Below, piece by piece: positions 57,440-60,872 of a stretch of 64,000 nucleotides of DNA; the stretch's first letter is position 1; every line of letters begins with the position of its first letter. The DNA is taken from positions 8,040 to 72,039 of IMG/VR virus record IMGVR_UViG_3300046170_000454, one strand, 5' to 3'. Below the pieces are notes generated by a model, which did no database searches, was not told where the DNA came from, and saw only the letters and a list, made by a program, of their open reading frames with translations. A program made the translations under genes and the position numbers. This DNA is from a virus. Lineage: Duplodnaviria; Caudoviricetes.

Positions 57440-57501
57440 TCCCGACAGATTAGCCCCCACCTCCCAACCTGTCTAGGACAAGTCGAGGGGTGGGGGCTAA
57501 T
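57440..57501 (-). repeat. Array repeat L3 (left terminal): 25-bp hairpin followed by CTGTCGGGA
   Basis: Minus strand reads ATTAGCCCCCACCCCTCGACTTGTC-CTA-GACAGGTTGGGAGGTGGGGGCTAAT-CTGTCGGGA. Confidence 0.85.
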
Positions 57502-57523
57502 GTTAGGCGCACAGATTACTGAG

Positions 57524-58027
57524 TCAGTACCGATTATTAGATGGTTTTAAACTGATAAACGGGTCTGGGCTCTCTTCCACTTTAGAGAAGCTAAGTGTAT
57601 TCATGAGGTCTTCTACATGCTCGTAGGGATGCCCCATATTAGCTTCCCACTTGGAAATGATGTTGGAAACTGTCGATAGATTGCAGGGTGCTCTTAAGCG
57701 GTAGTCATCCGCCCACATAAGACCCTCTTCCACCGCAGTCGGATGGTTCTCAGGGATCTCAGAGCAATACAGATACCATTGGTTATCCTCTTCTCGCTTA
57801 AACCACCAATCGAGAAATTCACTGTGCAGTTCTCTTAACCAAAAAAGATCAATGCCTTCGCCCTCACTAATGAGGGTGATCGCCTGAGCAACGACATTAT
57901 AGTCTTTGAAACAGATAGCTCCGCCATAAATAGCAGGGTTAAAGTCAATCCCAGTGTATCCTTGGATCTGCTCTTCAAAAGAGTGGGTGTAATCCAGTGC
58001 GTTAAGGTTTTTGAATAGCTCAGACAT
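57524..58027 (-). CDS. Hypothetical protein (cassette L3)
   Basis: 167 aa, AGGAG RBS inside the repeat leader. Confidence 0.75.
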   Translation of the reverse strand: MSELFKNLNALDYTHSFEEQIQGYTGIDFNPAIYGGAICFKDYNVVAQAITLISEGEGIDLFWLRELHSEFLDWWFKREEDNQWYLYCSEIPENHPTAVEEGLMWADDYRLRAPCNLSTVSNIISKWEANMGHPYEHVEDLMNTLSFSKVEESPDPFISLKPSNNRY

Positions 58028-58156
58028 GAGCGTATCTCCTGTAATGTTAGGCTCATCATAATGAGCACGTTGTAAATAAGGGTGTCGCTAGGACTCCCGA
58101 CACCTCAAACCCCCACCGTCTAAACTGCTTAGAGCAGATTAGAGGGTGAGGGTTAA
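58028..58156 (-). repeat. Array repeat L2: hairpin + GGTGTCGGGAGTCCTAG + GCTC/GAGC hairpin + RBS
   Basis: Minus strand reads AACCCTCACCCTCTAATCTGCT-CTA-AGCAGTTTAGACGGTGGGGGTT TGA GGTGTCGGGAGTCCTAGCGACACC...GCTCATTATGATGAGC CTAACATTAC AGGAG. Confidence 0.9.
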
Positions 58157-58174
58157 GATTAGCCTGTGCTCCTA

Positions 58175-58531
58175 TTACTCGTAACGTGGTCGCTCTGTAG
58201 TTTGGCGCTCGCCTGGGCGTTCCTCCACGCGTGACCACGCTTCAGTACCGCCACGCGACGAGTAGATATCACCGCCGTAAAGGTCTTCATCAGTAGCGTA
58301 ACGCTCCATGTAGTCGTGAAGGTGAGCGATCTCATCGCCACGATTGCGACAAGGGATCGTGAGGACAAGATCGTCGTGGTTATACCACCACCCGCCCTCC
58401 TCAGGCCCCCCATAACAGCGTACCGTAGTGTAGAGTGAGACGTATACAATAGTGTCCTCTGAGAGGGGATTCCCATCATCATCAGTCACTACTGCTTTAG
58501 GATCATTTGGCTTATCGAAGGTCGCGCTCAT
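58175..58531 (-). CDS. Hypothetical phage protein with a YGGPEEGGWWY motif (cassette L2)
   Basis: 118 aa, AGGAG RBS. The motif recalls small conserved phage proteins of unknown function. Confidence 0.75.
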   Translation of the reverse strand: MSATFDKPNDPKAVVTDDDGNPLSEDTIVYVSLYTTVRCYGGPEEGGWWYNHDDLVLTIPCRNRGDEIAHLHDYMERYATDEDLYGGDIYSSRGGTEAWSRVEERPGERQTTERPRYE

Positions 58532-58653
58532 GCGAAGCTCCTAAAGTTAAAGGCTCATCATAATGAGCCGTTTTAGATTAGAGAGTCTAGGACTCCCGAC
58601 ACCTCAAACCCCCACCGTCTGATCTGTCTAGGACATCTCAGAAGGTGGGGGTT
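58532..58653 (-). repeat. Array repeat L1
   Basis: Minus strand reads AACCCCCACCTTCTGAGATGTC-CTA-GACAGATCAGACGGTGGGGGTT TGA GGTGTCGGGAGTCCTAGACTCTC...GGCTCATTATGATGAGCC...AGGAG. Confidence 0.9.
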
Positions 58654-58679
58654 ATATTGGTGCTTCACTTGCTAGTAGC

Positions 58680-58970
58680 TCACTCGGTCGGCTTCCATCC
58701 TTTAGCCTTGCGGAGTTTATCCGCTTCTGACTGTACGCGCCCGTTGCTCAACTGATACCAGTCACTCTCATGAGCGTCACACCAGTTGTAATGGTGATTT
58801 ACGCTTTTGAAATCGATATGAGCCCAATTTGCGTTACGATATGAATGAATGCAAGTATGGTTGTCACTGTTTACATATGCGTGGTACTCAGCTTTTATGT
58901 ACATAAAAGCACATGAGGCAAGACCGAAAATAACTATATAAATAGCAAGTGTTTTGAGTTGCGCTTTCAT
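58680..58970 (-). CDS. Small protein with an N-terminal transmembrane/signal segment (cassette L1)
   Basis: 96 aa, LAIYIVIFGLASCAFMYI hydrophobic stretch, AAGGAG RBS. Confidence 0.7.
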   Translation of the reverse strand: MKAQLKTLAIYIVIFGLASCAFMYIKAEYHAYVNSDNHTCIHSYRNANWAHIDFKSVNHHYNWCDAHESDWYQLSNGRVQSEADKLRKAKGWKPTE

Positions 58971-59043
58971 GCGTAGCTCCTTGTCAAGAGGCTCTTAAGA
59001 GCCTGTAATGTTAGGGAAGATTGTCCTCCCTCTCTACTAACAT

Positions 59044-59293
59044 TACGGATTACTTTTTTCCCCCCGACATTAGGGCTCACGCTCGACCCGCCCGCGCCCG
59101 CATAGCACACGTATAGAATTAGCAAACCGATTAAATGTCTCAATTCTATACGTTAATATTACCGCGCACACGCGCATGGGTACGCGCATGGGTACGCGCA
59201 TGGGTACGCGCATGGGTACGCGCATGAGTACGCGCATGAGTACGCGCTGGTGTGATCTAGGCTTAAATGTCGGGGGGAAAAAAGTAATCCGTA
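59044..59293. repeat. Core bounded by 28-bp perfect inverted repeats (59044-59071 and 59266-59293); candidate twin divergent promoters
   Basis: TACGGATTACTTTTTTCCCCCCGACATT and AATGTCGGGGGGAAAAAAGTAATCCGTA are exact reverse complements. Genes diverge from both sides. Confidence 0.9.
59170..59247. repeat. 12-bp tandem repeat, 6.5 copies
   Basis: (ACGCGCATGGGT)x4, (ACGCGCATGAGT)x2, then ACGCGC. Confidence 0.95.
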
Positions 59294-59350
59294 GAGTAGA
59301 TATAGGGGGGGCAACACCGCCCCCTCACCATTCAAGCCTAGGAGATACCA

Positions 59351-59698
59351 ATGGCTACACACAGTGAACAGCGCGAGCTCGCGCTTCACAATCTCAAGCA
59401 AAAGGTCGGAGGGATCTCCCTCCGTCATCTGCGACAAAATCCGAAAACCACCCTGTTACAGTGGGAAAACCTATGTATCATCCCTTGGGAAGGCGTGGAT
59501 GAGGTCGAAGGTTTGTTGAAAGAGGTCGACCTTATGACAGCTCAAACAGACCTCCAAGACACTCTTATTGAGTGGCTTGGAGGAGCAGATGTAATGGAAG
59601 ACGCAGAGTATTTCCATCTTCGCAATATGAGCGATGGAGATGCGCTTCAGGCGCTCTACATCTTTGTCCTCCTCACTGCGATTGGGCTCTATCGCTGA
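59351..59698 (+). CDS. Hypothetical protein with a C-terminal hydrophobic segment (cassette R1)
   Basis: 115 aa, AGGAG RBS. Confidence 0.75.
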   Translation: MATHSEQRELALHNLKQKVGGISLRHLRQNPKTTLLQWENLCIIPWEGVDEVEGLLKEVDLMTAQTDLQDTLIEWLGGADVMEDAEYFHLRNMSDGDALQALYIFVLLTAIGLYR

Positions 59699-59718
59699 TC
59701 TCCCCTTTAACTTGAGAT

Positions 59719-59851
59719 ACACCTTAACCCTCACCTTCTGAGATGCTCTAAGCAGATCAGACGGTGGGGGCTTGAGGTGTCGGGAGTCCTAGCGACACCC
59801 TTAATCTTAAACACGGGCTCATTACGAGCCCCTAACATTAGGAGAGATCAC
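59719..59851 (+). repeat. Array repeat R1
   Basis: ACACCTTAACCCTCACCTTCTGAGATGCT-CTA-AGCAGATCAGACGGTGGGGGCTTGAGGTGTCGGGAGTCCTAGCGACACC...GGGCTCATTACGAGCCC CTAACATT AGGAG. Confidence 0.9.
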
Positions 59852-60437
59852 ATGAAAGTGACTTTTCAAACTCAGCTTAAAGGAGTGGAGCGCGGTAAAG
59901 CGGGCTCCAAGACCCGTTACGGTCAACACGTCGTCAAGGTATCTCTCGACCTCTCGCCCGATTACAAGGGTGATGCAGAGCGCGATCTTGCGTTATTGCA
60001 AAGCGTCCAAGCTGACGCAACAGCGGTACGCGCTGAGACAGACGATATACTCGTCGCGCAGGGCCAAGCGCCCTCAACCGACGAGGAGTGGGCTATTTCC
60101 TTCATCGGTGACCGCACCTCTAAGGTGCGCACCAAAGGAGTATTAGAGAGCCTTGTGCTCTCTGCAAATGATCTTCAGCCCCCGCATTACGTGGGGCAAC
60201 AGCATTGTGATTAACAACATCGCTTTCACAGAGCACAATGGAGCTTTTTACCTTCGCGGTAGGAAGCTCAGTAGCTCGGTTGTCGTTAAAGACACAGACC
60301 CGCCCGCGCCTAAAAAGAGGCGTATGACCCTTGTGAAAGACGCGCTCAAGAGCGTGATCCGTACACGCGGAAAACTGCTCACCGAACAATACCGTACCTA
60401 CAAGATTGACGATCCTCATGCGGTCGTGATCCTGTAA
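59852..60437 (+). CDS. Hypothetical protein (cassette R2), probably one ~194-aa gene with a +1 frameshift near 60178-60196
   Basis: ATG 59852 follows AGGAG. The overlapping ORFs ending at 60214 and 60437 join (...QPPHYVGNSIVINN...) if one G of GTGGGGC is removed. Confidence 0.6.
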
Positions 60438-60456
60438 TCCTAAAGCTGATGTTGAT

Positions 60457-60573
60457 ACACCTTAAGCCTCTACCCTCTGAGATGCCCTAGTGCAGATCGG
60501 ATGGTAGAGGCTTTCGGTGTCGGGGAGTCTTAGTGACTCTCTTAATCTCTTAACTTTACAGGAGTTACTCGCC
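60457..60573 (+). repeat. Array repeat R2
   Basis: ACACCTTAAGCCTCTACCCTCTGAGATGC-CCTAGT-GCAGATCGGATGGTAGAGGCTTTCGGTGTCGGGGAGTCTTAGTGACTCTC...TTAACTTTAC AGGAG. Confidence 0.85.
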
Positions 60574-60807
60574 ATGAGTAAAACCCCTAAAGAGGTGGTC
60601 AACCTCTTACATAAAATCTCTCTCCTCACGGAGAAGGTCTATAACCACGCTCCGATTGAGGAGCTTGAGCGGGATAATGAGACTCTTCAGCAAGAGGCGA
60701 GGAGTCTCTTTGAGAAGACACCCTCTTACGCTTGCACAGAGATCAGTGAGGCGCTCGCCTCACTCCTCCAAGCAATCAAGGTGACAGGTGTGCTTCATGC
60801 TGACTAA
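60574..60807 (+). CDS. Small helical hypothetical protein (cassette R3)
   Basis: Start moved to ATG 60574 (MSKTPKE) behind AGGAG; 77 aa. Confidence 0.7.
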   Translation: MSKTPKEVVNLLHKISLLTEKVYNHAPIEELERDNETLQQEARSLFEKTPSYACTEISEALASLLQAIKVTGVLHAD

Positions 60808-60809
60808 GC

Positions 60810-60872
60810 AAAAGCCCTCGCCGTTCTAACCTGCTTTTAACAGGTTGGACGGCGGGGGCTTTTCTGTCGGGA
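60810..60872 (+). repeat. Array repeat R3 (right terminal); also a plausible bidirectional terminator
   Basis: AAAAGCCCTCGCCGTTCTAACCTG-CTTTTAA-CAGGTTGGACGGCGGGGGCTTTT-CTGTCGGGA. T-tracts on both strands, between convergent genes. Confidence 0.8.

Follow-up and report, generated by a model that had tools for sequence, protein, structure and literature searches.

A mirror-symmetric array of hairpin and TGTCGGG units, a putative promoter/terminator cassette system in a fragment of an uncultured marine huge phage

Six small genes in a 64,000-nucleotide (nt) stretch of viral DNA (the window; bases 8040-72039 of the 72,039-base IMG/VR virus record IMGVR_UViG_3300046170_000454, here G000) are arranged in two divergent arms around a common core, and are delimited by a repeated unit that combines an imperfect hairpin with the heptamer TGTCGGG. 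We consider it reasonably probable that this locus is a composite terminator/promoter cassette array whose units also serve as substrates for recombination. The reading starts from the anatomy of the array, from the RNA-type covariation and strand asymmetry of its hairpin, from the spread of the same parts over several loci of a related phage, and from cassette-level differences between relatives whose junctions are scattered.

TGTCGGG is found 11 times in the window, versus 4.56 ± 1.97 expected from shuffled sequences. Eight of these copies are within 57441-60871 and all eight are co-directional with the genes: the boxes at 57441, 58096, 58595 and 59063 are on the minus strand, those at 59268, 59778, 60518 and 60865 on the plus strand, and the strand flips exactly at the core. 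The remaining three (5822, minus; 36621 and 55198, plus) are situated inside coding sequence and are not preceded by a hairpin. The repeat array is real and far from chance. A first-pass annotation of this DNA had described the eight boxes in the transcribed orientation, and the motif count confirmed each place and strand; its gene starts at 58970, 58531 and 58027 (minus) and at 59351, 59852 and 60574 (plus) were reproduced by open reading frame (ORF) calls. Six of the eight array boxes come after an imperfect hairpin of ~50 nt, and these six units can be aligned as one family (A1) with the order hairpin, 0-6 nt, TGTCGGG and leader, the leader consisting of AGTCCTAG.GAC.CCCTTAATCT, a small hairpin, CTAACATTA, a Shine-Dalgarno sequence and ATG. 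An nhmmer search of the whole 72,039-base contig with A1 returned the six array units and no further copy.

The leftward arm, on the minus strand, is headed by a core leader (58971-59069) in which TGTCGGG (59063-59069) is followed by a conserved spacer, TAATGT, a GC hairpin and a Shine-Dalgarno sequence, and which has a fold z-score of -3.25. Then come the cassette gene W_96 (58680-58970), unit M1 (58532-58663; hairpin, TGTCGGG at 58595-58601, leader), W_118 (58175-58531), unit M2 (58028-58164; hairpin, TGTCGGG at 58096-58102, leader with a small hairpin and Shine-Dalgarno sequence), W_167 (57524-58027) and unit M3 (57438-57509; long hairpin, CTAATC, TGTCGGG at 57441-57447). The rightward arm, on the plus strand, is headed by the second core leader (59268-59350; TGTCGGG at 59268-59274, conserved spacer, TAGAGT, GC hairpin, Shine-Dalgarno sequence) and continues with W_115 (59351-59698), unit P1 (59716-59851; hairpin, TGTCGGG at 59778-59784, leader with TAATCT, a small hairpin and Shine-Dalgarno sequence), W_194 (59852-60437), unit P2 (60455-60573; hairpin with compensatory stem changes, TGTCGGG at 60518-60524, leader) and W_77 (60574-60807). 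It ends with unit P3 (60803-60874, assigned to neither strand), made of an A-tract, a GC-rich hairpin and TTTTC-TGTCGGG (60865-60871), with a folding energy of -39.6 kcal/mol.

The symmetry extends to the units themselves, since two inverted unit pairs (I1 and I2, 68-81 nt) are 91% complementary and the outermost units form a further inverted repeat (I3, 53 nt, 74% complementary). The resemblance of the outermost repeats had been taken to mean that the array has defined ends; the likeness stands, but the left repeat has its own leader and a co-oriented gene after it and is not an end. M3 lacks a U-tract, TAATCT occurs in its leader 19 nt after TGTCGG, and the unit is followed by a gene with a DUF5824 domain (56925-57392, minus; Pfam PF19141, E 4.4e-10), the last gene of the leftward arm, after which no structured terminator was found. 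The count of three genes per arm therefore needs amending although the starts were right: the leftward arm contains this additional gene, and the second rightward gene, W_194, is split in the window.

The hairpin was analyzed in an alignment (A3) of 18 copies from the window and from its one full relative, G001, a 168,266-base IMG/VR record (40% complete according to CheckV) that was found with a 16-mer of the unit. A 17-pair structure is paired in 91.7% of cells, versus 33-50% when the partners are slid, and in nine of the 17 pairs both partners have changed (39 cells). The observed covariation score was reached by none of 500 shuffles, a control that overstates significance because the copies are related; the slid-partner control and the double changes are nevertheless clear despite this kinship, the latter for example at CCCTCACC/GGTGGGGG versus CCTCTACC/GGTAGAGG, and RNAalifold independently reports compensatory changes in seven of 15 pairs. 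The sense strand is the more stable one in 16 of the 18 copies (mean -34.6 versus -30.4 kcal/mol; -41.9 versus -34.7 kcal/mol in M3), and 30 G:U pairs are present. A covariance model (R1), a check that the first-pass annotation had proposed, detects six copies in the window (77.3 bits for M3, 83.7 for M2, 84.3 for M1, 83.5 for P1 and 72.1 for P2) and 13 in G001. Sense copies of the main type score 58-84 bits and the antisense strand 22-51, and the aberrant G001 hairpins score 47 and 31 (aligned) and 31 (a further copy that is not aligned). Because of the sense-strand stability, the G:U pairs and the covariation, the hairpin probably acts as an RNA made from the gene strand rather than as a DNA palindrome.

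Two classes of hairpin can be distinguished. Terminal copies have an A-tract 5' of the stem and a TTTTC, TTTC or TTCTC tract 3' of it, and in P3 and five G001 copies (D_m2t, A_p2t, B_t, C_mt and C_pt) the U-rich tract directly follows a GC-rich stem, as in an intrinsic terminator, which is what these copies look like. A simple terminator scan missed them, their stems and loops being beyond the limits of the scanner. The internal copies, which carry CTTGAGG or GATAAGG, are imperfect duplexes of 19-24 bp without the U-tract of an intrinsic terminator, and would for this reason at most attenuate transcription, be cleaved, or protect a 3' end. Among the window units, the combination of A-tract, stem and T-tract is confined to P3, which is 96% identical to D_m2t of G001. 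A convergent ORF encoding a DndB-like protein ends at 60889, 15 nt from P3, and P3 resembles an intrinsic terminator that works in both directions and is shared with this gene.

The two core boxes head 44-nt inverted arms that are 84% complementary and 194-198 nt apart, in keeping with the earlier description of a core bounded by inverted repeats. The first 26 nt of both arms (TGTCGGGGGGAAAAAAGTAATCCGTA) are identical, and this 26-nt module is identical in all ten copies known from the window and G001. The central control region between the boxes (59070-59267) contains a palindrome, ACGTATAGAATT-N21-AATTCTATACGT (59109-59153), about six tandem 12-mers (59158-59253) and abundant alternating purine-pyrimidine runs. 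The motif CGTATAGAATT is also present upstream of cores A, B, C and D of G001. The array of the tandem 12-mer (ACGCGCATGGGT) differs in copy number and form between the window and G001 (~94.3-94.4 kilobases, kb), and alternating purine-pyrimidine runs (CGCGCACACGCG...), which are Z-DNA-prone, are found upstream of all core modules.

A hexamer of the form TAnnnT occurs 15-20 nt (mostly 17-19 nt) after TGTCGG in 23 of 27 units, and in 20 of the 21 units with core or gene-type leaders. All ten core modules have it (TAATGT, TAGAGT, TAGTGT or TAACCT) at N17-18, internal-type and M3-type leaders have it in 10 of 11 cases, mostly as TAATCT at N18-19 (one at N15 and one at N20), and terminal units in three of six, two of these three being orthologues. 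The spacers are unrelated among the three unit classes; between orthologous internal units the spacer length is held (17) and several bases differ. In every gene-preceding unit other than the core modules, the long hairpin abuts this box-spacer-hexamer element. A GC hairpin of variable sequence follows the hexamer by 6-9 nt in 10 of 10 core leaders, and a small hairpin is similarly placed in the internal leaders; both would look like 5'-terminal stabilizing stem-loops. The geometry suggests a bipartite promoter whose element at the -35 position is unlike that of sigma-70. TAATGT may resemble the promoter motif of the phiEco32 sigma factor, and readings of the box as a sigma-54, extracytoplasmic-function (ECF) sigma or MotA-box site were dropped for want of a match or a factor.

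G001 contains eight core-module copies in four loci. Locus A (58.8/59.0 kb) is divergent; locus B (65.5 kb) is single and one-directional, with one gene between the core module and a terminal hairpin; locus C (75.1/75.36/75.46 kb) is divergent with a tandem pair of modules; and locus D (94.4/94.6 kb) is divergent and orthologous to the window locus, with the same flanks (GlmS/DUF5824 on one side and DndB-like/PEPCK on the other) and a DUF5824 gene of 94% nucleotide identity. Hairpin-plus-box units are confined to these loci; G001 has ten further copies of TGTCGGG, none of them with a hairpin of this kind. The other loci head genes for a methyltransferase, a 757-amino-acid (aa) VWA protein, an AAA_5 ATPase and a repeat-rich zinc-finger-like protein, and a nucleotidyltransferase gene (56.36-57.12 kb) is situated at the end of an arm behind a degenerate hairpin. 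Judged by this distribution, the core would be a module used repeatedly to head transcription units, and the hairpin unit one used repeatedly between genes or to close a row of them; because the same parts serve four loci with unrelated genes, neither appears to be the attI or attC site of a single platform.

Directly after a terminal hairpin plus box at 76.72-76.80 kb, G001 has a tandem 13-mer, CCCTAACCTTAAG, with at least four repeats. The same sequence is present in a contig of seawater run X1, the probable source sample of the window, where it is joined at window position 60872, which implies that the phage of the window has a corresponding locus outside the 72-kb fragment. Searches for other relatives returned little. 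The array gave no blastn match among 50,697 phage records; the 16-mer scan of IMG/VR yielded seven stretches, six of which have no nhmmer match, so that G001 is the one true relative among them; and IMG/VR scans with a 21-mer of the core, an internal-unit pattern and the palindrome returned G001 alone. The core 21-mer was absent from JGI metagenome contigs and GTDB genomes. The DndB-like protein as a query again led to G001 in IMG/VR, and to two short metagenome contigs besides.

Comparison of relatives reveals differences at the level of whole cassettes. The first-pass annotation held that identical gene order without cassette gains or losses would speak against gene capture or shuffling; instead, W_167 and W_77 are each missing as whole cassettes from locus D, and in a metagenome contig a homologue of W_96 is on the other arm. 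The W_167 junction is at or just after TGTCGGGAG, and that of W_77 in G001 joins the foot of hairpin P2 to a point 5 nt short of the stop codon and leaves two tandem hairpins. Similar orphan hairpins occur in locus A, where an internal unit is directly followed by a terminal hairpin, and they look like scars of cassette loss. Two tandem hairpins with no gene between them are present at 60.18-60.38 kb and at 93.08-93.21 kb of G001. L027, a 1432-base metagenome contig, also lacks W_77 and has a different junction, a P2/P3 hybrid hairpin, which recurs in contigs of seawater run X4 (joint 60501>60855, with a side of 28 nt). In L027 the W_96 homologue is on the opposite arm, directly upstream of W_194, and the hairpin before it has an M1-like 5' flank and a P1-like 3' part. 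The simplest route to this switch would be inversion of the W_96-core-W_115 segment between the inverted units of I1 and I2; replacement is a possible alternative. In a further form, in an X4 contig, the core leader is joined directly to W_118 (58542>58983, side 79 nt) within the leader repeat CCTAACATTACAGG; the two X4 forms may or may not share one genome.

The five junctions are thus at five places, four of them inside unit homology, one of these four being at TGTCGGG; those off the box are in the leader, in the 3' arm of the hairpin, inside the hairpin, and at a non-homologous point at the hairpin foot. This scatter, mostly within unit homology, points to homology-driven exchange rather than to a recombinase that cuts one site. 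Unit similarity does not track positional orthology, P1 of the window being 92% identical to A_p1 and 81% to its positional counterpart D_m1. The shuffling part of the proposal is therefore upheld in so far as whole cassettes differ among relatives, but the exchange does not look like the work of a dedicated site-specific platform. Two other joints were set aside: 59064>59273 (X1), which falls between the inverted arms of the core, is probably an artefact of assembly, and 58157>59028 with 37 other letters (X4 and X8) probably belongs to another locus or strain.

On the reading as a composite cassette array, the region would be a hyperplastic block of small orphan genes that are probably expressed early, with two divergent transcription units leaving a mirror-symmetric control region. 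Each unit would be headed by TGTCGGG, a spacer of 16-17 nt (identical in core copies), TA(A/G)NNT and a GC stem-loop near the 5' end of the mRNA. After a gene, the composite unit would act first through its ~50-nt imperfect RNA hairpin, which attenuates transcription, is processed or protects the 3' end, and then through an abutting second promoter-like element (TGTCGGG, ~17 nt with a small hairpin, TAATCT), after which come a 5' stem-loop and a Shine-Dalgarno sequence. On the right, the U-tract hairpin would close the arm as an intrinsic terminator shared with the convergent neighbour, and the left arm would continue into the DUF5824 gene without a recognizable terminator. The units of ~100-140 nt may serve as portable homology, because the same unit flanks each gene in both orientations and at several loci; general recombination between them would delete, insert, move and probably invert cassettes and leave expression signals unbroken. 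A bolder version is possible but doubtful: TGTCGGG with its conserved spacer would be a new promoter class for a phage-encoded or virion-delivered factor or polymerase, and the units would form a genome-wide, orientation-independent shuffling system that moves cassettes between loci and flips them across the core, possibly through circular intermediates, as a second, independently evolved counterpart of the PeSL cassettes of T4-type phages.

Several points weigh against the cassette-array reading. A scan with the sigma-70 consensus found nothing at any unit, and two sites in the region against 5.1 expected; the TAnnnT skeleton and the 16-19-nt spacing are the only sigma-70-like features, the TGTCGG box being unlike the -35 consensus. 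M2 (58102) is the sole gene-preceding unit without TAnnnT at the expected spacing, and in M1 (58601) the hexamer is only 15 nt away. In 240 kb, no sigma factor or multisubunit polymerase domain (PF00562, PF00623, PF04542) was found; for PF08281 there was a single helix-turn-helix match, below threshold and in an exonuclease-like ORF, and PF00940 (T7-like polymerase) matched neither G000 nor G001, nor any control genome, so that this last search is uninformative. TGTCGGGA is kept after six of six terminal hairpins, three of which lack TAnnnT and face a convergent gene, which implies that the box has, or had, a role beyond that of the next gene's promoter; it may be part of the termination signal, TGT extending the U-rich tract, or may travel with the terminal hairpin as one recombining block. 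The W_77 junction of G001 is the sole one of the five without repeat homology, the contig joints, found at 85% likeness with short sides (28-79 nt), show that forms exist and not how frequent they are, and one full relative is a small comparative sample. Finally, we infer rather than observe the promoter role of TGTCGGG...TAnnnT, the polymerase or factor that would read it, the mechanism of recombination, and the early timing, for which the small orphan genes and the W_118 homologues in terminal repeats of Herelleviridae would speak.

The other reading offered in the first-pass annotation, in which promoter or RNA-processing units are repeated through a modular early-gene region, agrees with the anatomy. 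In its RNA-processing-only version, the main rival to the cassette array although in our view an unlikely one, transcription would start only in the central region, for instance at the TAGAAT-like palindrome arms, and two long polycistronic RNAs would be cut into monocistronic messages at a 3'-end or cleavage signal made of the hairpin and UGUCGGG (an RNase III-type duplex or the site of a phage endoribonuclease), the core-leader box being the first cut. The internal hairpins suit this role, as strand-specific, covarying duplexes of 19-24 bp without a U-tract; so do the presence of the box at the head of every unit and after terminal hairpins that lack a -10-like hexamer, and the conservation of CGTATAGAATT upstream of every core. 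However, RNA processing leaves unexplained both the 16-19-nt distance from box to TAnnnT across three spacer classes and the tandem core modules at 75.36 and 75.46 kb of G001; the 26-nt core block, identical in ten copies, is typical of a DNA-recognition site, and no nuclease candidate was identified. That the small hairpin overlapping the box (GGGAGTC-N3-5-GACTCCC) is itself the promoter, read on extruded single-stranded DNA by an injected or phage-encoded single-subunit polymerase, as phage N4 reads hairpin promoters, seems very improbable. Internal units do have a hairpin of 5-9 bp at or overlapping TGTCGGG in which pairing is kept as the sequence varies, and an unusual polymerase could hide among the giant family-less proteins of the contig (1140-2260 aa); yet between box and hexamer the core modules lack such a hairpin, the loops vary from 3 to 5 nt or more, and no polymerase was identified.

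At the level of DNA, the core could be a replication origin or another DNA-transaction site and TGTCGGG a polar Chi-like, primase or nicking motif pointing away from it, which we regard as improbable. The box changes strand exactly at the core, which contains iteron-like 12-mers and a conserved palindrome, and the contig encodes a primase and a DnaB-like helicase; but gene direction explains the box orientation equally well, locus B of G001 is one-directional with a single copy of CGTATAGAATT, both the number and the sequence of the 12-mers vary from locus to locus, four origins in 40 kb would be odd, and the hairpin asymmetry is of the RNA type. The first-pass annotation had likened the layout to an integron with two back-to-back attI-like sites, in which TGTCGGG would be the crossover core site, the hairpin would be attC-like and a dedicated recombinase would act; this proposal is not supported and is judged extremely improbable. 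The layout was described correctly, a core site followed by gene-plus-palindrome units, whole cassettes do differ among relatives, one junction is at or just after TGTCGGGAG, and an X8 contig joins 60514 back to 59777, as expected from a circle or a tandem copy (or from a different neighbour), a weak joint with a 36-nt side at 85% likeness. On the other hand, four of five junctions are away from the box; no inverse core (CCCGACA) is found 5' of the hairpin, and TGTCGGG is 0-6 nt outside the stem. The G:U-rich asymmetry that matches the transcript and the U-tracts suggest RNA, even if attC sites are strand-specific too. The cassettes here have their own promoter-like element, unlike the promoterless cassettes of integrons, and the parts occur at four loci, where they head large ordinary genes. 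The first-pass annotation had noted that no recombinase is visible in the window, and none of the tyrosine or serine type was found: the profile for tyrosine recombinases (PF00589) matched nothing in G000 or G001 while matching its controls in 14 of 14 genomes, and PF00239 for serine recombinases was likewise empty, although absence from 72 and 168 kb of records that are 17% and 40% complete is weak evidence.

Five of the six array genes have no Pfam or PHROG match. W_118 (118 aa) matches only a PHROG of unknown function (phrog_30656, E 9e-18) and is 81% identical in aa sequence to its G001 orthologue. W_96 (96 aa) is 52% identical to D_92 and, as read from its sequence, would have a hydrophobic N-terminal segment with a lipobox-like LASC. 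The orphan W_115 (115 aa), with a hydrophobic C-terminus, is 46% identical to D_124 and has no family match in Pfam or PHROGs. W_167 (167 aa) is an orphan without a Pfam or PHROG match, and ESM Atlas searches with it and with the 194-aa protein gave no usable match. W_77 (77 aa) is absent from G001 and from L027/X4. The two window ORFs of W_194 (59852-60214 and 60153-60437) match one 194-aa protein in G001 with 87% and 84% identity (~85% overall), and the gene is intact in L027. Since one base at 60179 is missing from the contigs of four of four seawater runs, the split is probably a one-base homopolymer error of the record. Contigs of three or four of the four runs have one base fewer than the window at 57018, 59272, 60179 and 60522, and all four positions are probably homopolymer insertion errors; the extra G at 59272 (plus core copy) and that at 60522 (box at 60518), each missing in contigs of three of four runs, lie in TGTCGGG runs and look like record errors, and the insertion at 57018 may alter the C-terminus of the DUF5824 protein. 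Homologues of W_118 lie under the annotated terminal repeats of the Bacillus phages Mater and P59 (Herelleviridae), in a row of small genes, and in Streptomyces phages of ~131-134 kb they occur twice in each record, close to its start, so that W_118 appears to be a small gene common to very distant phage groups.

The 72-kb record, 17% complete according to CheckV, is a fragment of an uncultured marine huge phage, as is evident from its gene content, from a baseplate match to a 485-kb phage and from the presence of the window stretch in seawater metagenomes. The CheckV figures for G000 and G001 point to a complete genome of about 420 kb. It encodes baseplate proteins, a primase, a DnaB-like helicase, a SNF2-type helicase, pieces of a DNA methyltransferase, a dCMP deaminase, GlmS, PEPCK and a DndB-like protein. 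One baseplate protein has 42% aa identity to one in the uncultured 485-kb phage LR745208.1, which has no R1 match, and a more distant kinship to Bacillus phage G. The array is flanked by metabolic and modification genes, namely GlmS-like (54762-56510, a label read off the translation only), DndB-like (60889-61890) and PEPCK (62069-63631; Pfam E 7e-207). Elsewhere in the window are seven giant ORFs of 1140-2260 aa (1996-7395, 8157-12077, 12785-16282, 28741-32163, 34109-38290, 41232-48014 and 47959-51585). Of the five scanned against PHROGs and Pfam (the other two against PHROGs only), one had a weak match to a tail-protein PHROG and none a match above the cut-off in Pfam; the ORFs of 2260 and 1208 aa had no PHROG, Pfam or PDB sequence match. 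Their products may be virion or injected proteins. At 678-3187 of the record (minus), three separate ORFs match different parts of the methyltransferase PHROGs phrog_67 and phrog_3008, which could be a split or interrupted gene or the result of further frameshift errors.

Literature searches for promoter/terminator or other intergenic repeats in jumbo or huge phages found nothing closer than PeSLs and the repeats of the halovirus HF2, and for TGTCGGG in phages the matches listed were unrelated, judging by title or abstract. In HF2, conserved repeats between genes fall into classes and carry promoters (PMC8707807). The likeness lies in the occurrence of such repeat classes in a virus genome; HF2 differs in being an archaeal virus with AT-rich promoter motifs, and its abstract describes neither a long hairpin nor cassette shuffling. 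Rows of small genes divided by conserved intergenic hairpins or by promoter/terminator pairs are shared with the early region of T7, where RNase III sites between genes cut the RNA into stable monocistronic messages, and with host-takeover modules of the SPO1 type, whose early genes lie in the terminal redundancy. A W_118 homologue is part of the terminal-repeat gene row of Bacillus phage Mater, but the G001 loci, unlike a module of the SPO1 type, are in the middle of the contig (57-96 kb). The array shares with integrons a core site followed by single-gene units that end in an imperfect palindrome, a short conserved motif at unit boundaries and a variable cassette content. It differs from them in that no IntI was found in the two partial records, an R''/R' inverse core pair is missing, junctions vary in place instead of being tied to the motif, cassettes carry expression signals, the system is multi-locus and bidirectional, and some hairpins have terminator U-tracts.

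The closest known counterparts are the PeSLs, composite cassettes of a sigma-70 promoter and a stem-loop that flank ORFans in hyperplastic regions of T4-type phages (PMC2839356; PMC4122927). They have promoter and terminator activity, crossovers take place at varied points inside the motif and mini-circles are formed (PMC2839356); the authors themselves likened PeSLs to integrons, and no dedicated recombinase is known (PMC2839356; PMC4122927). In the present array, too, a short and conserved intergenic unit combines a stem-loop with a promoter-like element, orphan genes of variable regions are enclosed by such units (in G001 sometimes genes with known domains), and the cassette differences between relatives are bounded by units, with junctions at varied internal points. 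The box, by contrast, is TGTCGGG and not the TTGACA of sigma-70, and the AT-rich UP region of strong sigma-70 early promoters is not seen; the hairpin is much longer (~50 nt, with three helical segments); a palindromic core, itself present at four loci, separates two mirror-image arms; one cassette occurs on the opposite arm; and the carrier is an uncultured marine huge phage, not T4-like. By analogy, the locus would work like a PeSL system, as a variant rather than a member. It offers a candidate set of parts for a phage without a cultured member, comprising a promoter-like box, a 5' stabilizer hairpin, an attenuator hairpin and a two-way terminator, and the shuffling model is open to direct testing through the cassette differences observed in metagenomes from seawater. 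As far as searched, gene-shuffling promoter/terminator cassettes have been worked out only in T4-type phages, and the same logic built from unrelated sequence in a marine huge phage suggests that exchangeable, expression-ready accessory genes may be a general strategy of large phages.

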